Source: Mobula hypostoma (lineage: Eukaryota). From it: DNA of 64,000 bases. Below, one piece after another: positions 7,985 to 63,447 of this stretch. Under the pieces are notes generated by a model, which saw only the letters and a program-made list of their open reading frames with translations, did not search any database and was not told the origin of the DNA. The stretch is taken from positions 45,448,001-45,512,000 of the forward strand of contig NC_086097.1 in assembly GCF_963921235.1 (NCBI RefSeq), written 5' to 3'. Numbering within the stretch: the first letter of the stretch is position 1; every line of letters starts with the position of its first letter. The translations under genes and the position numbers were made by a program.

Positions 7985-8126
7985 TTTTTGCCAGTCCTGG
8001 TGAAGGATCTTGGCCCGAAACGTCGACAATTTACTCTTTCCCATTGATGCTGCCTGGCCTGCTGAGTTCCTCCTGCATTTTGTGTGTGTTGCTTGGATTT
8101 CCAGCATCTGCAGATTTTTTCTTGTT
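7985..8126 (+). mobile_element. Short Penelope 3'-terminal module (hammerhead-like motif plus tail) with 13-bp TSD
   Basis: cagtcctggtgaaggatcttggcccgaaacgtcgac followed by gatgctgcctggcctgctgagttcc...ccagcatctgcag. Flanked by tacaatgttattt (7972-7984) and tacaatattattt (8127-8139). Confidence 0.8.
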
Positions 8127-9684
8127 TACAATATTATTTATAATCTTACTGCAAAGATCTTTCACAAGCATATTTTTAGGATGGATTACATGATTGCCTC
8201 AAAAGATGTATCAAAAGTAAATTAAGTACATGCAGTTTCATATTTTGGTGTCCAAACATGCAAATGATTTTTCCCAATGGCGAATTTGTTTTATTGAAAC
8301 TTAAGTCATTCAGTAAAGGGGACATCTCTCTGCAGATATATGGAATCCTGAACAAATAAAATCCAATTTTTTTCAACTTCTTCATGATCTTTACAAGATT
8401 TTTACCTTTATTGTTTTAGTTTTGCTTAATTTTCCTTTGAGTTCCATTTTGCAGTAACTATCCAGAGCTTTGCAAAGTGGCATTTTTTCAACAAATCATA
8501 ACTGATGTAGTCCACCTACAGTAGACAAGTACCATTCTCTGTTCTGTTATGATCAAGCTCTCCAAATAGATAATAAATGGGAGTGATTAATTGCTATAGA
8601 TGTTATTGTGAATTGGTACACCAATCTGTTTGGACAGTTTTAAATGCAAGAGCTTGTGTTGTTTCCTTTTATGAATCTAGAAAAGAAAAAAACAATTTAA
8701 ACACTCTTGAAATAATTGAAATACATCTGTAACCTCAATATTCAATGCCATTTAGTATACTTTTCTGAAATTTTCCTGTAAATATCAAATTCACCTCCAG
8801 TTTTCCTTCTGACGATTTATACATGTGAATGTTTCCTTAAAGGAAAAATGTTCCTTCTCCTCCTCTAAATTTGATTAGGAAGGATTTTAGATTGCTTCAA
8901 CTTTCAGAATTGCCCCTGCAGTTTCTTTCCAATGCTTACATGTTGATGTGTTGACATGACTATGTTTCATGAGTAAACCCATATTATGTATGCAATACCA
9001 AATCCAAATCCAAGTTCAGCTAGCATCTATACACAGACTTCTGGAACAAATAAGTACAGGGATGCTGAGCAACAGTTCTGTCTGGTCAACTGTAGCAGAG
9101 CTACTAGTAACTGGAACTGACAACTCAGAACTGAAAATAGACCAAAACAGGAGCCAGTATATACCCACAAGGCACATTACCATCAGAGTAGCAGATTGTC
9201 CAAAGGGTGTACTCTGACTTAATTTCAAAAGCAATCAGGACAGGAAAATGTGGAAACAAGATTATTGTTCTGCCCTAAACATTTTTTCTTATTCTACCAG
9301 CTGTGCCAACTATAAACCATTCCTTAATCTCAAACAGGCAATTAAATTAACTCTAAATTTTTTGCTAATGATTGTAGCATATGCTTCTTTCATAATATAA
9401 CTTCAAAATTCTTACCCAATTTTTAGTTTAAAAATGAAGGAAATTCTGGAAAACTGTTCGAGCAACAGAGGTATGAATAATTGAAATAACATTTAGATAA
9501 TCTTCTGTTATTATGAAATTTGGCTTCTTTTAAGATATGTTCTTCATACCATCTTTATCCTTGGCATATGTGCCCTCAAGCTACTACCACTTCATGTAGA
9601 CAGTGGAATCAATATCTCTGATCATATTAGTGCTGCTTCTGGAAGGCACCACATCCTGTCCTGAAGAAAAATTATTAGAAGTTA

Positions 9685-11836
9685 ACACAAAATAATCTGC
9701 AGATACTGGGATCAAAGCAACACTCACAGCACGCTGGAGGAACTCAGCAGGTCGGGCAGCATCAGTGGAAACGATGAGTCGACATTTCGGGCCGGAACCC
9801 TTTGTCAGGACTGAACAAAGAAGGAGGGGGAAGGATTTGAAGAATGCTTGTAGGTTCAGTTGAAAGGCCAGTAATTTGAAAGACAAAGGAGTGGGGGAGG
9901 GGAAGCAGGGACGTCATAAGCAGGAAAACAATGGGTAGTAGAAGAAGGAGGCGGAACCATGATGGAGCTGGGGGAGGGGGCAGAGTGAAATAGGGATAGA
10001 GGAAGGGAGGGGGAGGGAATTACGGGAAGTTGGAGGATTCTATGTCCATACCAAGGGGCTGGAGACTACCTAGACAGTATATGAGGTGTTGCTCCTCCAA
10101 CCTGAGTTTAACCTCATTATGGCAGTAGAGGAGGCCATGTATGGACATATCTGAATGGGAATGGGAAGCGGAGTTGAAGTGGGTGGCTACTGGGAGATCC
10201 TGTCTGTTGTGGCGGACGGAGTGGAGGTGCTCGACGAAGTGGTCCCCCAATCTGCGTCAGGTTTCACCGATGTAGAGGAGGCTGCACCAGGAGCACAGGA
10301 TGCAATAGATGACCCCAACAGACTCACAAGTGAAGTGTTGCCTGGGGCCCCGAATGGTGGCAAGAAAGGAGGTGTAGGGACAGGTGTAGCACTTACGCTT
10401 ACAGGGTTAAGTGCCGGGTGGGAAATCCGTGGGGATGGACGGGCGGATAAGGGAGTCGCGGGGGGACCGATCCCTGCGGAAAGCGGAGAGGGGTGGAGAG
10501 GGAAAGATGTGTTTAGTGGTGGGGTCCTGTTGAAGGTGGCGGAAGTTGCGGAGGATAATGTGCTGGATCCGGAGGTTGGTGGCGTGGTAGGTAAGGACAA
10601 GGGGAACTCTGTCTCTGTTGTGGTTGCGGGAGGATGGGGTGAGGGCTGAAGTGCGGGAAATGGAGGAGATGCGGGTGAGGGCATCATTGATAATGGTAGA
10701 AGGGAAATCCATGATCCTTAAAGAAAGAGGACATTTGAGATGTCCTGGAATGGAAAGCATCCTTGGAGCAGATACGGCGGAGACAGAGGAACTGGGAATA
10801 GGGAATGGCAGTTTTGCATGTGGCAGGGTGGGAAGAGGTATAGTCGAGGTAGTTATGAGAGTCAGTGGGCTTGTAGAAGATGTCAGTGGACAGTCTGTCT
10901 CCAGAGATGGAGACCGAGATATCGAGAAAGGGGAGAGAAGTAGCTGAGATAGACCAAGTGAATTTGAGGGCTGGGTGGAAGTTTGAAGTAAAGTCAATGA
11001 AATTGATGAGCTCAGCATGGGTGCAGGAAGCAGCACCAATGTAGTTGTCAATGTACTGAAGGAAAAGTTGGGGAGCAGTACCAGAATAGGTTTGGAGCAC
11101 AAACTGTTCTACATAAACAACGAAGAGGCAGGCGTAGCTGGGTCCCATGCGAGTTCCCATAGTTACACCCTTAGTCTGAAGAAAGTGGGAAGAGCCAAAA
11201 GAGAGTTATTAAGTGTGAGAACCAGTTCCGCCAACCGGAGGAGGGCAGGGGTGGTGGGTAACTGGTGAGGTCTATTATCCAGGAAGTAGCGGAAGGCTTT
11301 GAGGCATTCTTGATGGGGAATGGAGGTGTATAAGGATTGGACATCCACAGTAAAAGTGAAGCAGTTGGGACCGAGGAACTGGAAGTTATTGAAGAGGTGG
11401 AGGGCATGGGATGTATCCCGGATGTAGGTGGGGAGGGACTGAACTATGGGTGACAAAATGAAGTCCAGGTAGGCAGGTACAAGTTCGGTGGGACAGGAGC
11501 AGGCAGAAAATTCTCCAACTTCCGGTAATTCCCTCCCCCTCCCTTCCTCTATCCCTATTTCACTCTGCCCCCTCCCCCAGCTGCCTATCACCTCCCTCAT
11601 GGTTCCGCCTCCTTCTTCTACTACCCATTGTTTTCCTGCCTATGATTTCCCTGCTTCCCCTCCCCCAACCCTTTGTCTTTCAAATTACTGGTATTTCAAC
11701 TGAACCTACAAGCATTCTTCAAATCCTTCCCCCTCCTTCTTTGTTCAGTCCTGACGAAGGGTTCCCACCCGAAACGTCGACTCATCGTTTCCACTGACGC
11801 TGCCTAACCTGCTGAGTTCCTCCAGCCTGCTGTGAG
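9685..11836 (-). mobile_element. Penelope-like retroelement (RT + GIY-YIG), 5'-truncated, with inverted pseudo-LTR and 15-bp TSD
   Basis: Minus-strand ORF pieces: MGTRMGPSYACLF, LQYIDNYIG, LPFLDI, FYKPTDSHNYL, IPYSQFL and the GIY-YIG C-terminus VATHFNSASH...RLEEQHLIYCLGSLQPLGMDIE. 9722-10040 is the reverse complement of 11508-11836. TSD aattattagaagtta (9670-9684) / aattatcagaagtta (11837-11851). Confidence 0.93.
11746..11783 (+). ncRNA. Minimal type-I hammerhead ribozyme motif in Penelope pseudo-LTR
   Basis: agtc-CTGACGA-a-ggg(ttccca)ccc-GAAAC-GTC-gact: stem I agtc/gact, conserved core, short stem II, GUC cleavage triplet. Minimal hammerheads are established features of Penelope-like elements. 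Confidence 0.8.
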
Positions 11837-11894
11837 AATTATCAGAAGTTATCGGTCTGGATAAGTTAAACTCCCAGTGTTGACTCATGCCCCA

Positions 11895-15507: not shown

Positions 15508-15760
15508 TTCACAAAATAATCTGCAGGTGCTGTTGTCAAAGGAACACTCACAATGCGCTGGAGGAACTCAGCAGGTCAGTCAGCATCAGTTGAAAAGATT
15601 AGTCGACGTTTCGGGCCGAAACCCTTCATCAGGACTGAAGGAAGAACTTTGGGGAGGGTTTGAAGAATGCTGGTAGTTGAAAAAAAGAGTAATTTGAAAG
15701 ACAAAGGGGTGGGGGAGGGGAAGCAATCTCCTGTCAATCACCTCCCTGCTTCTTCCCTCA
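15508..15760 (-). mobile_element. Penelope 3' fragment
   Basis: Closely matches 9685-9905 (cacaaaataatctgcag...gctggaggaactcagcagg...gtaatttgaaagacaaagg). Confidence 0.85.
15601..15637 (-). ncRNA. Minimal hammerhead ribozyme motif, intact core
   Basis: Reverse complement reads cagtc-CTGATGA-a-ggg(tttcgg)ccc-GAAAC-GTC-gact. Confidence 0.8.
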
Positions 15761-23779: not shown

Positions 23780-24275
23780 TCACTCCTTTCTAAGATAAGG
23801 AGACCAAATTGCTCACAGTACTCTAAGTGAGGCCTCACCAGTGCTTTAAAGAAACTCAACATTTTGCTTTTATATTCTAGTCCTCTTAAAATGAATTACA
23901 TTTGCCTTCCTCATCACAGACTCAAACTGCGAATTAACCTTTAGAGAATCCCGCACAAGGTCTCCAGGGTCCCTTTGAGCATCAGATTTTTGAATTTTCT
24001 GTCCAGTTAGAAAACAGCCTACCCAGGGGGTCCCAGCAATTTCTATGCCATGGAACAATACCATTATGCAAGGAATCCATAGACCCCCAGGTCAGGTCTA
24101 CCCTTTTATTTCTTCTAGCAACGTGCATGGCCACACAGTATTCCACCTGCTACTTCTTTACCCATTCTCCTAATCTGCCTTAGTCCTTCTGTAGTGTCTT
24201 TACTTCCTCAAAACTACCTGCCCCTCCAACGATTGTTGTATCACCTGCAAACTTTGCAACAAAGCCATCAATTCT
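23780..24275 (-). mobile_element. CR1 LINE fragment, degenerate
   Basis: Reverse strand resembles CR1 ORF2 (QRDPG.LV.DSLKV..., gcactggtgaggcctcacttagagtactgtgagc). Confidence 0.7.
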
Positions 24276-24345
24276 GTTATCAAGCAACACACATCAAAGT
24301 TGCTGGTGAATGCAGCAGGCCAGGCAGCATCTCTAGGAAGAGGTA

Positions 24346-24383
24346 CAGTCGACGTTTCGGGCCGAGACCCTTCGTCAGGACTA
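24346..24383 (-). ncRNA. Minimal hammerhead ribozyme motif, intact core
   Basis: Reverse complement reads tagtc-CTGACGA-a-ggg(tctcgg)ccc-GAAAC-GTC-gactg. Confidence 0.8.
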
Positions 24384-25606
24384 ACTGAAGGAAAAACTAG
24401 TAACAGATTTGAAAGTGGGAGGGGGAAGGGAGAGTCATTGACATATAACATTAAAAAGAAGGCCCCCATCACCCAGGACATGCCCTGTTCTCACTGTTAC
24501 CAGCAGGAAGGAAGTACAGGAACCTAAAGGCACACACTCAGCATTTCAGAAACAGCTTCTTCTCTGATTTTTAAATGGACATTGAACCCATGAACACACA
24601 TGAAATGCAGGCCAGGCAGCTTCTATAGGAGAAAAAAGTACAGTTGACGTTTCTGGCTGAAATTCTTCGGCAGGACAGGGAAAAAAACGGCTGAGGAGTA
24701 GATTTAAAAGGTGGAGGGAGGGGACAGAGAAATAGAAGGCGACAGGTGAAACCTGGAGGGGGAGGGATGAAGCAAAGAGCTGGGAATTTGATTGATGAAA
24801 GAGACAGAAGGCCATGGAAGTGAAAAGGGAGAAGCTGAAGCACCAGAGGGAGGTGATGGGTGGGCAAGGAGATAAGGTGAGGGAGGGAAAAGGGGATGGG
24901 AAATGGTGAAGTGTGGAGGGGAGGTGGGAGGCATTACCAGAAGGTTGAGAAATCGATGTTCATGCCATCAGGTTGGAGGCTACCCAAACGGAATATAAGG
25001 TGTTGTTCCTCCAACCTAAGTGTGGCCTCATCACGACAGTGGAGGAAGCCATGGATGGACATATCGGAATGGGAATGGGAAGTAGAATTAAAATGGGTGG
25101 CTACTGGGAGATCCCGCTTTTTCTGGCGGACGGAGCTTATATGCTCGGCGAAGCGGTCTCCCAGTCTACGTCAGGTCTCCCCGATATACAGGAGGCCACA
25201 TCGGGAACACCGAACACAGTATATGACCCCAACAGAGTCATAGATGAAGTGTCGCCTCACCTGGAAAGACTGTTTAGAGCCCTAAATGGTAGTGCGGGAG
25301 GAGTTGTAGGGGCAGGTGTAGCACTTGTTTCGCTTGTAAGAATAAGTGCCAGGAGGGAGATCAGTGGGGAGGGACGAATGTACAAGGGAGTCGCATAGGG
25401 AGCGATTCCTGCCGAAAGTAGAAAGTGGAGGGGGCGGGGGGATGGAGGGAGGAAAGATGTGTTTGGTGGTGGCGGAAGTTTCAATCAATTATGTGCTGGA
25501 TACCGGAGGCTGGTGGGGTGGTAGGTGAGGACGAGAGGGACCCTATCCCCAGTAGGGTGGCGGGAGGATGGGGTAAGAGTAGACGTGCGTGAAATGAAAG
25601 AGGTGC

Positions 25607-26091
25607 GGTTCACCAGATTGATTCCTGGGATGGCAGGACTTTCATATGATGAAAGACTGGATCGACTAGGCTTATACTCGTTGGAATTTAGAAGATTGAG
25701 GGGGGATCTTATTGAAACATATAAAACCCTAAAGGGATTGGACAGGCTAGATGCAGGAAGATTGTTCCCGATGTTGGGGAAGTCCAGAACGAGGGGTCAC
25801 AGTTTAAGGATAAAGGGGAAGCCTTTTAGGACCGAGATTAGGAAAAACCTCTTCACACAGAGAGTGGTGAATCTGTGGAATTCTCTGCCACAGGAAACAG
25901 TTGTGGCCAGTTCATTGGCCATATTTAAGAGGGAGTTAGATATGGTCCTTGTGGCTAAAGGGATCAGGGGGTATGGGGGGAAGGCTGGTACAGGGTTCTG
26001 AGTTGGATGATCAGCCATGATCATACTGAATGGCGGTGCAGGCTCGAAGGGCCGAATGGCCTACTCCTGCACCTATTTTCTATGTTTCTAT
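25607..26091 (+). mobile_element. CR1 LINE 3' end nested in Penelope
   Basis: C-terminal part of ORF 25525-26001 (RFTRLIPGMAGLSY...FTQRVVNLWNSLP). Tail ttctatgtttctatg. Penelope sequence resumes afterwards. Confidence 0.93.
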
Positions 26092-29029
26092 GAATGCAGC
26101 CTTGATAGTGGAAGAAGAGAAACTCTAGTCTTTGAAAAAGGAGGACATTTCCTTCGTCCTAAAATGAAAAGCCTCATCCCGAGAGCAGATGTGGCGGAGA
26201 CGGAGGAATTGAGAGAAGGGGATGGCGTTTTTACAAGTAGCAGAGCGGGACGAGGTTTAGTCCAGGTAGCTGTGAGAGTCCGTGGTTTGTAATAGACGCC
26301 GGTGGATAAGCTGTCTACAGAGATAGAGACAGTGAGATCGAGAAAGGGAAGGAAGGTGTCGGAAATGGACTGGGTGAATTTGAGGGCAGGGTGGAAGCTG
26401 GAGGCAAAAAGTGCAATAAAAGATTGATAGTTTCTTACTTTAATGCGTTTTTTATACTACTAGCTATCATCAAGATTGCAAGATAATACACGGTTATATT
26501 TCTATATAATGATATTTTCTCGGTTGTAACATATCCACCACATTTCTGCAGCCACTGAATTGGTTAATAATATTAGTAACTTAACTATAACTCACTCAGC
26601 GATTCCCATCTGCCATGCGATTTCTAAATGGACATTGAACCCATGAACACTACCTCATGACTTTTGTATTTCTGTTATTTTGTATTACTTATTTTAAGCT
26701 AACTATTTAACAGACATATACACTTAATGTAACTCAGCTTTTTCTCTATATTTATTTATCATCTATTTCATTGTACTGCTGCATAAAGTTAACAAAGTTC
26801 ACAACATATGGCGGTGATATTAAATCTGATTCTGAACTCTGCATTAGAATAGTAACGAAAGTGGCATTCTCATCTCTGATTTGATGTTTTGTAGATTCAA
26901 GACATGGTTTTGGACAGAATACTGAATAAATGAGGCTCCAGATTCAAATTTCAGAATCTCCAATCTTCTGACCATAAATTTCAAGACATCGGAGGATGCG
27001 ATCCTAATAAAGGATGGAATTAGTATGTGATTAGAGATAAACTTTCGGAAAAGTACAGGGCCAGGCGTTCTGGGCCGAAGGATTAGTTTCGGTTCTGTGT
27101 GACTCTGTGGTTATACACAGCCTAAGCACCTTAATGTAGTAATGGCAGATTGCTCTTTATCGAAGTTGGTAAACTTTGGCACTCTTAAAGAGTAGCGGAC
27201 TCCTCAACTTAGTGGCTGCTGTCAAATTAAAGCTATCCACAGCCCCACGTATTGACAGAAGTGACTGACATTGCATTTTAATGAGGAATCTATTAATCAG
27301 GAGGTATGCTTGTGCAGGTATAGATTTTCTTTTAATAATCCATAAGGCTTATCGAAGCCTAGCGGCATGGGAAAACAAGATAGTAAAAGTGAAGGGTTTG
27401 ACTTTTTAATGATATCAAACCAACAATTCAGAATCTGAAATATATTAAAGTGTGATCCTACCAATAATAGACCCTGAATGGTCTAGGAAAAGTAATATAA
27501 TTCTGTTCATAAAAAGATCCCGTTCAGCATGCACGCGTTAATAGAAAAGATTAAACTCCTTTACAATGCGATCACTAGAGCAAAATCATTAATTTTAACA
27601 AAGAAGGTGAAACTGAGCCCTGGCCGACTGTGCTGAACACAGTTCGGAGAGCACTGAACTGAGTTTGATTTATCAGTTTACCCTTAATGCTCCGTCGATA
27701 GTAACCGATAGCTTCCAGCGCTTGTATTCTGGGCGTTCCCATTTAAAATTAGTTTGCAAATTATTCAACTTGCACAATTCTTCTCCAAAGAACTTGTATT
27801 GTGTATGCTCCTTCTGAATTGACAGGATCCATGAAAAGCTTCACAGCCAAATTTAATACGTTTTAAGAAATTCCGTTACACTATGTAATTGGGGAGGACA
27901 ATTCAGAACATTGAAATAAAGGAAAAATCCTGGTGAATTGATGCAGCAACGTTTTTATTTGTTGAAAACATCACTCACTAAGTTACCTTTCCTGCAGAAA
28001 TTGAATAGGCGGCATCTCAAATAACTCAAGTGTTTATCTACCTAAATCACATTCTTTTGGCAGATAGCGATTTTAACCTTCCTCGCAGAATAGTATTCCG
28101 GCTGTCAGCCACAAAGCTTTCTTTCGTGCTCTTAGTACGAGCCGAGGCCAGGGGCCCTTTTCTCTCCTAACGTGCCGGACCTGGGCCGCTTCACTTTTAT
28201 TTCCACTGGGATCTAAAAGGGTGTAAAAGACTGGAGTCGTGATAGGCCTCACAGTATCACGGTTATGCTTGTTTGCTGCTGTGAAAATTGGATCAGGGGA
28301 TCAGAATCAGCTTTATTATCACTGACGTACTGTATATCGTGAAATCGATTGTTTTACATTTCAATTCATTTAAAAATTACTGCACGTTACAACAGGAAAT
28401 GTCAAATAAATAAATAATGCGAAAAGAGAAGAAGTTAGTGTTCATGGTCAAGTTCAATATGAATTTTTGCAATATTGCAAACGTGCCAACAAATATGTGC
28501 AAACACTGATGCTCTCTAAGATCCTGTGGGGCCTAATGAGCAGCTTCGTTGTTGTGAGATGCAACACAATGTCATGGCTTCAAATGTGGGTTATAATGCT
28601 TCAAAAACAAAATAATGGTCATTAATTACAATGGGTGTCCAAACATTATTACAGCATATGGAAACAATGCTACTAATATTAAAAATCTTGCACCTTTCAC
28701 ATTCTTCCGAGCACACAGCAAACAATTAAGTATACCGTAGTACTTTTTATAATGTAATAGAATCGTTGGTGTAATTGTTGGAACTGTGGCAGTCATCACC
28801 ACCTCCGACAAACATCAGTATGCTCAATGATTGCTTACTTGATTGTCCATCGTATCCGACAATGACAGATTCAAAACATGCACGGGGCAGTTTTAAAATT
28901 TGAAAAGCTGTTGCACTGAGGATCCAGTGGAACGAGTAGCTATCACAGCTGGGGTCTTCTTTGGTTGCAGTGGATGACCGCGTCTTTAAATGTGCCTTGT
29001 TGTGCCCTTCGATCTCGACGAAACATTGC

Positions 29030-30057: not shown

Positions 30058-30670
30058 GAACACAAACACAGGAAATCTGCAGATGCTGGAAATTCAAGCA
30101 ATACACATCAAAGTTGCCGGTGAATGCAGCAGGCCAGGCAGCATCTCTAGGAAGAGGTACAGTTGATGTTTCGGGCTGAGACCCTTCGTCAGGACTAACT
30201 GAAGGAAGAGCTCGTAAGAGGTTTGAAATTGGGAGGGGCAGGGGGAGATCCAAAATGATAGGAGAAGACAGGAGGGGGAGGGATGGAGCCAAGAGCTGGA
30301 CAGGTGATTGGCAAAAGGTGATATGAGAGGATCATGGGCGGGGGGCGGGGGGGGGAGGCCCAGGGAGAAAGAAAAGGGGGAGGAGGGGAAAAAACCCAGA
30401 GGATGGGCAAAGGGTATAGTGGGAGGGACAGAGGGAGAAAAAGGAGAGAGAGAAAGAGAAAAAGAAAAAGAATGTGTGTATATAAATAAATAACAGATGG
30501 GGTACGAGGGGGAGGTGGGGCATTAGCGGAAGTTTGAGAAGTCAATGTTCATACCATCAGGTTGGAGGCTACCCAGACGGAACATAAGGTGTTGTTCCTC
30601 CAACCCGAGTGTGGCTTTGTCTTTACTGTGAGACATATCAGAGCGGGAATGGGACGTGGAATTAAAATGT
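30058..30670 (-). mobile_element. Penelope 3' fragment with hammerhead-like motif (30160-30197)
   Basis: Matches 24283-24430 almost exactly. Purine-rich 3' UTR and the GIY-YIG end (EEQHLMFRLGSLQPDGMNID on the reverse strand). Confidence 0.85.
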
Positions 30671-33065: not shown

Positions 33066-33397
33066 GAAATAACCTTCCAACTATAAATCAGAAATATGCA
33101 AATGTTGTGGATCTGAGATAAAATAAGCAGATCAGGCAGCACTTGAGGAAAGGGAAACAAAGTTAATGTTTATATTCAGAGTTCAAAGTATATTTATTAT
33201 CAAAATATCTATATGGAATAGAACTCTGGGGATTCGACCTCCCACAGGCAACCACAAAACAAAGAGACAGCAGGGAACCCGTTCCTAAAAAAATCAACAA
33301 ACACCTAACGTGCGAAAAAAGAACAAACTATGTAAACAACAAAAAGCAAATGAACAATATATCAACATCAAACCAGGAGTCCAGGAGTGTTCAGTTT

Positions 33398-33525
33398 ACA
33401 AACACAAGAAGAACTGCAGATGCTGGAAATCCATGGCCACACACACAAAATGTTAGAGGAACTCAGCACGTCTATGGAGATGAATAAACGGTCGATGTTT
33501 CGGGCCGAGACCCTTCAGCAGGGCA
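33398..33525 (-). mobile_element. Short Penelope 3' module
   Basis: ctgcagatgctggaaatcc...gaggaactcagca...gtcgatgtttcgggccgagacccttcagcagg, a degenerate hammerhead. Confidence 0.75.
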
Positions 33526-33916
33526 GTTTAGTTCAGGTCAGTGCCGCTGGCTGACTGCAGACTGCAGGGCCAGTTTTCACCAAAGCTCCCATTTGTTAAA
33601 GACCATTTCCTAGTTCTGATGAAATGTTAACTCGATATTCTAATATTCCTCTCGCTGAATCTCATCCTCTCCTCGCTAGAAACACTGACTCATCCAGAAT
33701 GTTGCTATCCAATCACTAATCTATATCTACTAAAATCTGGTAAAAGGTCTCGAACATGAACAGTTGGACTTGTCTCACTTCCCTCAGATGTGGCTTAACC
33801 TGCTGAGTATTTCCATCAGTTTTAAATTTTACACTAGTCAACATATATTCAATAATCATCCCATCCCTGTAATTACTGACTGCCATTGCTTCCTAGGCAA
33901 CTACTATATCAGATTA

Positions 33917-34108
33917 AACTCAGCAGGCCAGGCAGCATCTATAGAAAAGAGTAAACAGTCAACGTTTTGGGCCAAGATCTTGATGAAGGGTCTCTGGCTG
34001 AAACATCAACTGTTGACTTTTTTCCATAGATGCTGCCTGGCCTGCTGAGTTCCTCCAGCATTTTGTGTGTGTTGCTTGGATTTCCAGCATCTGCAAATTT
34101 TCTCATAT
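33917..34108. mobile_element. Fold-back (palindromic) Penelope mini-element
   Basis: aactcagcaggccaggcagcatctat (33917-) pairs with atagatgctgcctggcctgctgagtt (-34051). TSD tcagattaaactc (33909-33921) / tcagtttaaactc (34109-34121). Confidence 0.8.
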
Positions 34109-34388
34109 TCAGTTTAAACTCTGTTCATAATCTCATTTAGGACCTATTTGCAGAAAATAATTGTAATTCTCACTGTAAACTCCTGCAAATCTCCACCTTC
34201 CTCATCTCAATCCACAATTTTCTACTCACATTGAAGCCAAGTTTTAGAACTCTCCTAGTCCCATTTTATTATCTTGGTGTACATTCTTTTCTGCACCTAT
34301 GTGTATGCCCTTGGGATTTCTAAATACATTATATTAAGGATTCTTTATAAATTCAAATTGATGCTGATGTGGCAATGCTTGTAAGAAT

Positions 34389-34589
34389 AAACAGCAACAA
34401 GCAATCTGCTGGAGTAACTCATCAAGTCAAGGAGCATCTGTGGAAGGAAATGAATTGTACAAGTTTCAGGTTAAAGCCTTGCTTTAGGACGAATTCCTTT
34501 TACCCCACCCACAGATGCTGCTCAATTTGCTGAGTTCCTCCAGCAGGTTGCTACTCCAGCTTCCAGCATCTGCAATCTCCGTGTCTCCT
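34389..34589. mobile_element. Fold-back Penelope mini-element (older)
   Basis: ctgctggagtaactca...gcatctgtgg versus ccacagatgc...tgagttcctccagcag. TSD cttgtaagaat (34378-34388) / cttgtaaaaat (34590-34600). Confidence 0.7.
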
Positions 34590-34850
34590 CTTGTAAAAAT
34601 TGATCTTATATTAAAAATCCAGCAATCATCCTAACCATCTTTTAAACGTTCCAAATTTCTACCCTAATTATTCTACCATGTGCTTTGTATCATGGCACAT
34701 TCAGGGAGTTGGGCCCCCCAAATCCAAATGACATTCCACCTCCCTATTCTTTCCCTACTGAGTGCCTTCACAAAGCTGTGGATCATTTGAGTCCATTTCT
34801 CTGTTCAAAATCATGATCCCCTCATTCTGAGGCCCTCTTTCTAGAAGCTC

Positions 34851-34967
34851 ATAAACACAAGAAATCCTGCAGATGATGGAAATCCAGAGTAACACACACA
34901 AAACGCTTATTCCTCTTCACAGATGCTGCCTGACCTGCTGAGTTGCTCCAGCATTTTGTGTTTGTCA
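34851..34967. mobile_element. Fold-back Penelope mini-element
   Basis: Minus-orientation tail (ctgcagatgatggaaatccag...cacacaaaacgct) fused to a plus-orientation piece (gatgctgcctgacctgctgag...agcattttgtg). Possible TSD ttctagaagct / ttccagaagtt. Confidence 0.65.
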
Positions 34968-35979
34968 TTCCAGAAGTTTAGTCAGGAATAACATGTTTTA
35001 GCAACTATCTTGCAAAGTTCCTTAAGAATGTTCCAAAGAAATTATCCTCTCATCTCAAGGGAACGAAGTCTACTTTATCGTTCTTCATAGGGCAATCTCA
35101 AAAGTTGATCAAGTTTTATCATCTAGCTTGATATAGTCACCAAACTTAAACAGTTCTACCTTTTTTAAATGAATGGGGCGCAAACACTATGGTACTTTAT
35201 TGGAGCATAAAGCAAACTGCTGGAGGATCTTAACAGATCAAGCTGGATCTATGAAAACAAAGGGATGATTGATATTTCAGACAAAGAATGATTGTGGCCT
35301 CAATGCAAAATACCCAAGCTTTTTTTTACTATTGGTTAACCAATGCAAACATAATGCAAAAGTATGAGGCCTAATTTTGCCTAATATGTGGCACTTTAAT
35401 AACTACTTTTTGAAAAAAAAACAAATATGCAGTATTCACTAGTTTTACATTAACTACTTCACTATTAAAAATGACAAAGTTCCAAAAAGTTTGTCTCACA
35501 TGATTTCTCATGATTCCTTTTCTATACAGTAAGCCAGATAGTTTAACCTTAGTAGTAGTAGGCAAATTATTGAAATCAATTCTGAGAGGCAATATGAACT
35601 TTCATTTAGGAAAGGCACAGATAAATCAAGAACAAACCATGGATTTGTTAATGGAAGTTTACATCCGACTGAAGAGGAATAATGAGATCAGTGTGTTTCA
35701 GTAAAACTTCTGATAAGGTCTGGTCAAAAAGGTAAAGGCCTATGAGATCCAATGGAAAGTGCCAAATAGATCCACAACCGCTATGATGATTGTCAACTGT
35801 TTTATTATATAATGCTGTTACCAGTGGAGTAAAGAGACCTTTTGATCTCTTGATTTTTGTTGTACTATATATCAATCATTTAGAAATAATGTGGAGGGAC
35901 GCTATAAAGAAATATTGCATAGGATACAAAGAAAAATCCTGTTTGGTTGACAGAGAGAAAAAAATCTTTAGACTGTGCA

Positions 35980-48365: not shown

Positions 48366-49420
48366 TGTAGAGTAATATGACCTGAAATTTTTAATAAAAT
48401 GAGTATAGCATAAAATCCAATGAAATGAAAAACTATTTGAATGACTTTAACTAGTAATTAAAATTTCCTGAATTCTGTGAAAATAAAGTATATAATAGGA
48501 AAAATGAATGATGCACTGGTGATGAAACACTTGAATTGAGATTTGTAGCCAAATGGGATTTTAAAATTGAATTGATTCTTTTGTCTTTGCATATCTTAAG
48601 ATAAGGTTTGATGTTTGTTATTACAAAGTTGGGATTAAAGCAGGAGTAGGCCATTTGACCCTTCATGCTCATTTTTGCCATCCAAAAGATCATGGCTGAT
48701 TATTCCCCCTGTGCCACTTTACTGCAGTAACCCCATATCCCTTGATTGCCTTAATATTTAAAATGCTTGTTGATCTGTCTTTAACATATTGGGGATTGAG
48801 TATCATGCTTTACCTGCAAAGGGAATTCCAAATACTCATCACCTATGTGTAAACATTGCTTTAAATCTCTCTAGTAAATGGCAGATCTCTTACTTTGATG
48901 TAATAACCTTTGGTTTTTTGATGTTCCAGCAAAAGGGAAATATAACCCATTTCTACTTTGTCAAGCCTCAAAAGAAGAGATATACTTTTTTATTCTTTAA
49001 AATGCAGGAATATCTAATTGAAACCCAGGTTGCCAGTTCATAAAGTTGTAGCTGCGTTAGTGGACAGGCGTGCTGTTTGGTTTATAACTTTATTCCACTT
49101 TGTCACTTGCTGGCTGTTAACTGTCGCAACCATTTTAACTAATTTAGAGTAAAATGTACTAAATGATGGAGGAACTCAGCAGCTCAAGCAGCATCTAAGG
49201 AAAGAAATAAACAGCCAATGTTTCAGGCTGAAACCCCTCATCAGGTCTCATTTTATCCTTAACCCACAGCAGTTGAGGCTAATTTCCAAATCTCGCCTCA
49301 CTCAAGATTCCAGAATGGAATTGTTTAGGTCACTGCTGCTCAATCACTCTTTGAATGAGCATGCCATGATTGCGAACAGTAAATGCCAGTAAATATTAAC
49401 TTCTTTTTGCTTTCTTGCAG

Positions 49421-50356
49421 CATCAACTAGATACTGTTCAAGTTCACATTCAAACTGTCCCATCCCAAGAGGAGAAAGATAGGCCGATGCCACCTTTAGC
49501 AGTAGTGCAGCCTAAAACAGCAGCATCCAATCAGGTGGCTAACCAAAGAACAACTGTATCCGGAGGAGTTAATATTTCTGGACCTCAGATCATTAGAATA
49601 CAGCCTCTTTCAACCACTGGGTCACAACAGTATATTTTGCACAGCTCTTCAGAACCTCCAATTCAACTACTTGTTCAGCGGCAGCCTCCACCACTTGCAC
49701 CTGTAAATTCTATACGTATGATTCCTGGGGTAACCATCAGTGGTCAGTCTGGCATTTTCACTAATACTGTAAGTACCACAATAACTACTTCCACAACAGC
49801 AGTAGCAAATTCAATTTCTACTAGTCACGTGAAGAAGCAGGAAATTAGTGATAAATCAAAGGAAAAAAAGCCTGTGAAGATCAAAACTCGATCTGGTCGT
49901 ATATCGCGACCTCCAAAATACAAAGTTAAAGACTACAAGTTCATCAAGACAGAAGATTTGGCAGAAGGCCATCAATCTGATTCAGATGACTATTCTGAAT
50001 ACAGTTTTGAGGAAGAAGATGTGAAAACAAAAATAGATGATTCAAGCCTTTCAATCCCTTGTTCATTCAAGCCCAAAAAGTTTAAGTGTGACACGTGTGA
50101 AAAGTCTTACATTGGAAGGGGTGGGTTAGCACGACATTATAGACTCAACCCATCTCATGGAGAGTTGGCTTCTGTCATTGAGGAACAGAGAACCTCTGTG
50201 AGCAAAACCAATGGAGATGTGATTGTTGGGGACACTGGAGGAGGTGGTGACAGAAATGGCACAATAGTTGATGGACTAGAGACACAATCTGTAAATACTG
50301 ACACTACATCTGTGATGGTGGGGAGCACAGACCTGTCATCTCAAGACGTTCAACAG
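49421..50356 (+). CDS. ZNF839: Zinc finger protein 839, coding exon 2 (312 codons, C2H2 finger)
   Basis: Acceptor ttctttttgctttcttgcag| and donor CAG|gtatgt, phase 0/0. Encodes the ZNF839 hallmark KTRSGRISRPPKYKVKDYKFIKTEDLAEGHQSDSDDYSE and the finger FKCDTCEKSYIGRGGLARHYRLNPSH. Confidence 0.93.
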
Positions 50357-50799
50357 GTATGTACTGATAACATGGTATCCAGAATTCCTTTCCTGAAAGC
50401 GCTGATATATTGGAGTTCGTTTCCAGGGGTGTTGCTAGTCTTTAACATGTATTGCTCAAGCAGCCATATTTTTATGAACACCTGAGATTAGTATTAGCAG
50501 GGCATCACAGCAAATTCTCTCTTTATCTCATTTTTTCTTGCATTTGGTCTTAAGGCAAGAAACATTTCAGCTAGCATTCACTGGTAAGCAGTGTGCCTTC
50601 CAAGCATTTTCATGCACCGAGGCCTGTGTTTGACAATATTGCAACTTGAGTTAACTTGTCTAATGCAGGATGGATAACTTGGTGAATTTCCAAACTAGGT
50701 GGTTAATTAATTGAGAAATTAGCACTAAAGATAGTTTATTACTTTCGGATTACTGTGAGGTACAATGTAATTTGTTAAGTATATATTAAGAATAAAAGT

Positions 50800-63278: not shown

Positions 63279-63447
63279 AAACAAGAGAAAATCTACAGAT
63301 GCTGGAAATTCAAGCAACGTCCACAAAATGCTGGAGGAGCTCAGCAGGCCAGACAAGACTTGCCATAGGGTCTCAGCCCAAAACGTTGACTGTACTTTTT
63401 TCCATAGATGCTGAGTTCCTCCAGCATTTTGTGTGTTGTGTGTGTTA
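63279..63447. mobile_element. Fold-back Penelope mini-element in ZNF839 intron 3
   Basis: cacaaaatgctggaggagctcagca (63322-63346) pairs with tgctgagttcctccagcattttgtg (63409-63433). TSD caaagccaatcta (63266-63278) / caaagctaatcta (63448-63460). Confidence 0.8.

Follow-up and report, generated by a model that had tools for sequence, protein, structure and literature searches.

Inverted pLTRs of Penelope-like elements (PLEs) with target-site duplications (TSDs) of 8–10 bp, a one-armed tail and junction palindromes have been published (PMC3846280; PMC8557442), and inverted pLTRs with a TSD and a one-sided tail are also found in PMC8969392. How PLEs form this arrangement is described as unresolved in PMC8557442 and PMC3846280. 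Work on Poseidon_Ac (PAc), an Anolis PLE studied in vitro, demonstrates that both target strands are cut and extended from two start sites that bound the tail; the enzyme is predicted to act as a dimer, and ribozyme cleavage is not needed (PMC11167929). That double priming gives rise to inverted insertions is not proposed in its main text; we infer this step here. In Penelope of D. virilis, the 5′ end of helix I of the hammerhead marks the end of an intron (PMC4209133). Non-LTR retrozymes are short, non-coding, PLE-related elements with a type I hammerhead, arranged as head-to-tail tandems with intact ribozymes (bioRxiv 10.64898/2026.07.22.740005).

Here we analyzed three small inverted units in the window, a stretch of 64,000 nucleotides from the ray Mobula hypostoma. 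They share with canonical EN+ insertions an inverted, 5′-truncated copy placed head-to-head, a tail of 30–40 bp at one end, a short TSD (a weak candidate in unit 3) and an overlap or palindrome at the junction (PMC3846280; PMC8557442). A coding copy in the same window has the Neptune-type linker described for such elements (PMC8557442). In contrast to the canonical insertions, the arms of the units are cut to 60–130 nt with no ORF left, the TSDs measure 11–15 bp compared to 8–10 bp in the rotifer, and the host is a ray (PMC3846280). Tiny PLE fold-backs in sharks or rays were not found in the titles and abstract openings returned by literature searches; Repbase, Dfam, subscription papers and supplements may hold descriptions.

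Results

The module belongs to a Penelope-like element

The module that makes up the units is around 130 nt long, and a profile built from 10 copies detects 23 arms of it in the window. It also ends a 2.1-kb coding copy with RT and GIY-YIG remnants (Table 1), which supports the initial reading of the pieces as Penelope-like terminal modules. The best RT relatives of this copy come from Hypanus, Mobula and Chiloscyllium (73–82% identity), and several of them carry RVT_1 and PF01541, the latter of which we take to be GIY-YIG. A direct Pfam scan of four broken ORF fragments of the copy gave no match (0/4). In its endonuclease remnant there is a CX3CxxC linker, and the GIY-YIG core contains two Cys. 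A CX2-5CxxC linker upstream of GIY-YIG is the mark of Neptune and Nematis and is absent in Penelope and Poseidon (PMC8557442). According to this sequence comparison, the module is the terminus of an EN+ PLE, Neptune-type by its linker, a character that does not separate Neptune from Nematis.

The 2.1-kb copy has its tail at the left end and an inverted, tail-less copy of about 330 bp at 11509–11838, which is nested in the main body and 91% identical to it over 238 bp. A 15-bp duplication (14/15) lies at 9670–9684 and 11837–11851. The layout, for which the initial annotation knew of no description in this lineage, is thus present in this larger copy, and inverted pLTRs with a TSD and a tail on one arm are described for PLEs (PMC3846280; PMC8557442). 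Elsewhere in the window, the region 24271–26456 contains two PLE ends (24271 and 24607) and a PLE body that a LINE-like fragment interrupts at about 25610–26090. A GC-rich, retroelement-like stretch at 2393–2793, unrelated to the module, contains two inverted segments of 96 nt that are 79% complementary and separated by 209 nt.

Table 1. Positions in the window of the inverted units, their flanking repeats and the copies used for comparison
Feature	Position	Strand	Remarks
Unit 1	33917–34108		192 bp
Unit 1, tail-less short arm	33917–33979	−	profile ~13–76
Unit 1, tail-bearing arm	33978–34108	+	profile ~4–130; begins at decayed, non-intact hammerhead core
Unit 1, left TSD	33909–33921		12/13 to 34109–34121; microhomology with the module over the final 5 nt
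Unit 1, right TSD	34109–34121		12/13
Unit 2	34392–34589		198 bp
Unit 2, tail-less arm	34392–34490	−	profile ~3–100; subfamily differs from unit 1
Unit 2, tail-bearing arm	34488–34589	+	profile ~35/49–130
Unit 2, left TSD	34378–34388		10/11 to 34590–34600
Unit 2, right TSD	34590–34600		10/11
Unit 3	34850–34966		117 bp
Unit 3, tail-bearing arm	34850–34907	−	profile 82–130+
Unit 3, tail-less arm	34905–34966	+	profile ~38–97; 15 columns overlap with the other arm
Unit 3, left candidate duplication (weak)	34839–34849		9/11 to 34968–34978
Unit 3, right candidate duplication	34968–34978		9/11; partly alignable to the module
Fourth small inverted unit (unit 4)	63279–63446		arms profile 59–130 and ~1–95; 13-bp duplication (12/13)
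Comparison copy, 2.1 kb, 5′-truncated	9687–11838	−	broken RT and GIY-YIG remnants
Single-arm insertion	7993–8128	+	13-bp duplication (12/13)
Single tail-less arm	41364–41461	+	perfect 13-bp duplication
Pyrimidine tracts of longer copies	9813–9852, 11707–11746, 15637–15676, 24383–24422, 24678–24717, 30197–30236		

Structure of the inverted units

In each unit, two pieces of one module, one on the minus and one on the plus strand, meet at the 5′ ends with the 3′ ends pointing outward, and a tail of about 35 nt is present on one arm only. All three are thus head-to-head, but the initial description of each unit as a module fused to its reverse complement is of no use for unit 3, whose arms share only 15 columns. 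In unit 1, the turn-around does lie inside the hammerhead: the left arm ends at profile ~13 and the right arm begins at ~4, with a junction overlap of 3–4 nt. That arms and junctions differ between units is borne out by the profile positions and is compatible with independent origin. The four small units of the window have four different junctions and belong to at least two subfamilies.

The five inverted insertions of the window (units 1–4 and the 2.1-kb copy) all carry the tail on exactly one arm (5/5; p=0.03 under 50:50, with ends assigned by hand). To look for a common template, we compared the arms for identity, a test that short overlaps and CpG decay weaken. Only in the 2.1-kb copy do the two partner arms match each other best (0/24 comparisons reach the same identity). 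Unit 2 comes close (1/30), whereas units 1, 3 and 4 do not (6/30, 6/26 and 15/28, respectively).

The patch at 33110–35290, with single arms at 33124, 33407, 33737 and 35211 in addition to units 1–3, holds 7 of the 18 module insertions within about 2.1 kb (p=0.0001) and is a local hot spot. The cluster of three reported initially is present; given the insertion positions, however, three inverted insertions within 900 bp are not significant (p=0.074), and the cluster thus reflects a module-dense patch.

Flanking direct repeats

The initial annotation reported a direct repeat around each unit and read each unit as a single TSD-bounded insertion. The quoted repeats are all present (Table 1). An unanchored test (null of 5,000 AT-rich window pairs) gave p=0.002, 0.016 and 0.20 for units 1, 2 and 3, respectively. 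The anchored test (2,000 null pairs) gave p=0.001, 0.006 and 0.019, and is lenient because the boundaries of units 2 and 3 were adjusted once the repeats were known. The repeat is good for unit 1, fair for unit 2 and doubtful for unit 3 (p 0.02–0.2), where the right repeat is ambiguous: its start aligns to the module past a 6-nt gap. Units 1 and 2 thus look like single TSD-bounded insertions and their repeats exceed chance, while the repeat of unit 3 is weak.

Of the 18 insertions, 17 entered the repeat tests; the far end of the remaining one, the arm at 24607, is undefinable. Anchored repeats of 11–15 bp scoring at least 8 are present at 7/17 insertions, namely all five inverted ones and 2/12 single arms; the other ten single arms, several of which have uncertain ends, lack a passing anchored repeat. 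As the fourth unit, the 2.1-kb copy and two single arms also pass, duplications of 11–15 bp are a trait of the family. No copy of the target was found at the inner junctions, and the outer duplications enclose both arms.

Hammerhead and arm starts

The pLTR contains a minimal hammerhead with an intact core and 3–5 of the 5 helix I pairs in 5 of the 15 arms tested. It resembles the min-HHR type I of metazoan PLEs (PMC4209133) in its core, its helix I of 4–5 bp, the unpaired base before helix II and the loopless palindromic helix III (5/15 arms), and differs in that the hammerhead is decayed in every tested arm of units 1–4 (0 of 6 with an intact core) and has no Rfam match. Rfam searches for hammerheads gave no match in the window at gathering level, nor in two stretches at E≤10. 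As in Poseidon_Ac, the hammerhead has an ATG in its core around 25 nt before the cut site (PMC11167929).

The 5′ edge of helix I, at profile −1 to 5, is where 8 of 17 truncated arms begin (p 2e-5 to 3e-4); starts were assigned by hand and the profile begins at the same edge, so some bias is possible. The eight arms lack an upstream tract found in six longer copies (6/6). This tract is pyrimidine-rich, lies at the 5′ edge of helix I, ends in AG in five copies and is splice-acceptor-like. We looked upstream of the eight arms for a constant spliced first exon and found no common sequence. Ribozyme cleavage was also rejected as the main cause of truncation, since only 2/17 arms begin near the cut site (profile ~33–38). 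The initial annotation placed truncation and inverted copying near the ribozyme; the inner arm ends spread across profile positions 1–82, and the stop they favor is the 5′ edge of the ribozyme, not its cleavage site.

Predicted folding

The units had been presented as hairpins. Predicted folding agrees for unit 1 (z=−9.7 compared to shuffles, longest uninterrupted helix 25 bp) and unit 2 (z=−5.9, 15 bp). Unit 3 folds no better than shuffles (z=0.05); it is inverted but not a hairpin, and the initial idea of the units as a source of hairpins and dsRNA fails for it. No RNA run was listed among the sequencing runs that contain the locus. Unit 1 gave a match of 34 bits to mir-2131 in Rfam, far under the cut-off of 92, and we consider the weak miRNA and plastid Rfam matches as generic hairpins.

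Related species

Contigs of four related species (C, D, E and F; 4.6–6.1% diverged), from 4 of the 20 sequencing runs that contain the locus, were aligned to 33550–35550. Left and right arms of unit 1 are attached to unique flanks in species C, D and F, single contigs run across the junction of unit 2 in species C, D and E, and both arms of unit 3 are attached to unique flanks in all four species. No orthologous contig across the junctions of units 1 and 3 was found in the four species. The relatives carry both arms; orthologs with a single arm, which the initial annotation had named as contrary evidence, were not observed. Since all four relatives carry the insertions and no empty site was found among the joints listed for them, the insertions predate those splits. 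The relatives appear not distant enough to provide the ancestral (empty) allele that would prove the duplications.

Other contigs are paralogous. At least nine pieces from the four species (12–18% different, 0–8 gap letters) span the junction of unit 1, which indicates that this junction type recurs elsewhere. At 34023–34104, paralogous contigs present recurrent 51-nt tandem returns with short inserted linkers, as well as joints to the opposite strand at 34070/34104; these features suggest other subfamilies or tail-to-tail arrangements. At 35205–35290, the orthologous contig of species D and F stops matching at 35215 and continues for about 270 letters; the single arm at 35211 is longer in species C, while species D and F may lack it or have it in another form.

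Surroundings of the locus

We saw no sign of function at the locus of the three units. Kinase-like exons, which might have placed the cluster in an intron, were searched for with one chance match of 4 residues as the only outcome, and no host transcript is known over the cluster. Two long host exons lie on the plus strand at 42666–43922 and 49400–50485, the first about 7.7 kb downstream of the cluster and the second matching DUF4764; a ZNF839-like identity is presumed. A tRNA gene at 42172–42244 (Rfam RF00005, 65 bits; anticodon CTT from the sequence), around 0.5 kb upstream of the first exon, is the only Rfam match at gathering level in the window.

Discussion

The three units very probably represent the small end of the known spectrum of PLE insertions: old, heavily shortened, and with the layout of an inverted copy plus tail. 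The same layout in the fourth unit and the 2.1-kb copy, together with repeats at single arms, places the units in this published spectrum and not among MITEs. With MITEs and fold-back DNA transposons they share their small size, the lack of coding capacity, the inverted ends and the flanking duplication. Unlike these, the units derive from the end of a retroelement, their arms are unequal, the junction differs from copy to copy and the length of the duplication varies. Their ends also differ from those of MITEs, as the tail is on one side only, the outer ends are not mutually inverted, and duplications of 11–15 bp are common to the single-arm retro-insertions. No terminal motif of a DNA transposon or TSD of fixed length was seen at the units, nor any shared amplified unit in the window. 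The label "MITE-like" used initially describes appearance only. An assignment to non-LTR retrozymes was rejected, as the units are inverted and their cores decayed.

Taken jointly with a mechanism in which both target ends prime synthesis, the assignment is somewhat favored. The element's enzyme would cut both target strands around 11–15 bases apart, and the RNA would be copied from both cut ends. One cDNA would begin at the outer site and give the tail-bearing arm, and the other would begin about 35 nt further in and give the tail-less arm. Synthesis of both cDNAs would end early, in many cases where the hammerhead has its 5′ edge, and the two would be joined head-to-head through 1–4 nt of microhomology or by end joining, repair leaving the duplication. 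The hairpins would then be dead by-products and not a separate mobile family.

LINE-1 twin priming also involves two target ends that prime, giving an inversion with microhomology at the junction inside the TSD. The stretches that its two primers copy from one RNA are distinct and mostly do not overlap, whereas the arms of the units do overlap and, starting at two terminal sites, face outward. Poseidon_Ac resembles the element of the window in its two ends bounding the tail, its AT-rich targets and the cutting and extension of both strands (PMC11167929). The comparison has its limits: Poseidon_Ac belongs to the Poseidon clade and has an AC-rich end, while the element of the window has a Neptune-type linker and a TG-rich end (PMC11167929). 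This difference of clade and of start region (AC-rich in Anolis, TG-rich in sense in the module) speaks against two-primer synthesis. So do the arm pairs of units 1, 3 and 4, which are not demonstrably derived from one template, and the recurrence of the unit 1 junction in non-orthologous pieces, and the number of inverted insertions is five.

A single cDNA, or an antisense template, could instead fold back on a few bases in the hammerhead region, copy itself and join the second target end. Such a snap-back was proposed for PLEs owing to the palindromes at their junctions (PMC3846280), and unit 1 suits it. Its short arm is nested in the long arm, the outer end of the short arm (profile 76) lies in the 5-nt microhomology with the target, and the module contains a 3-bp inverted match (profile 4–6/12–14) at the junction; the 2.1-kb copy is nested as well. 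However, in 3/5 inverted insertions (units 2, 3 and 4) neither arm is contained in the other, so a simple snap-back cannot yield them. In addition, the short arm ends at profile ~92–100 in 4/5 inverted insertions, the same tail boundary as in tail-less single arms. We regard snap-back as the main rival explanation, but a doubtful one.

Later loss of the unstable palindromic center could also give non-nested arms, if longer inverted insertions such as the 2.1-kb copy had shrunk. The asymmetric inner ends of units 3 and 4 and internal deletions of 10–12 nt in U4R and in the copy at 33407 are in line with this, and microhomology-mediated deletions of PLE copies have been reported (PMC3846280). 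Nevertheless, single arms of the same size (7993 and 41364) carry intact duplications, U1R, U2L and U4R have their inner ends where single arms begin at the 5′ side, and the junction of unit 2 was already short in species C, D and E, which together make central deletion improbable.

Re-amplification of some fold-backs, especially of the unit 1 type, as a MITE-like or SINE-like non-autonomous family could explain the paralogous pieces across the unit 1 junction in the four species, and pLTRs are sufficient in cis for mobilization (PMC3846280). The different junctions and subfamilies of the four small units and the decayed cores of their six tested arms argue against it, and the preferred stop at profile −1 to 5 would independently recreate similar junctions; we hold it to be very unlikely.

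The idea that separate single-arm insertions came to lie side by side, or one inside another, by chance in a dense patch would find some support in the abundance of the module (23 matches in 64 kb, 7 insertions in 2.1 kb; 180,000–249,000 contigs per sequencing run align) and in the weak repeat of unit 3, but it is largely refuted for units 1 and 2 and hardly credible overall, given that head-to-head adjacency arose in 1/100,000 simulations across the window and in 103/100,000 with 10 arms packed in 2.2 kb (p=1e-5 to 1e-3), that both arms lie between the outer duplications while the inner junction has no copy of the target, and that the tail asymmetry is seen in every inverted insertion.

More tentatively, two-primer Penelope insertion might have left a very large fossil record in ray genomes. 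A dimeric enzyme would prime both nicks at the sites that define the tail and would stall on reaching the 5′ edge of the hammerhead, at the pyrimidine tract and AG that form a possible splice acceptor, giving tiny fold-backs. This process could account for the long-unexplained inverted pLTRs of the class and be a main source of short genomic hairpins in these fishes, and some junction types might spread as retro-derived mimics of MITEs.

In genome annotation, the units can resemble MITEs or microRNA hairpins, and TIR-based tools could mislabel them. For the family itself, they constitute a test set for how PLE inversions arise: because such tiny insertions keep their outer ends, junction and duplication within 200 bp, counting them across a whole genome could tell double priming and snap-back apart cheaply.
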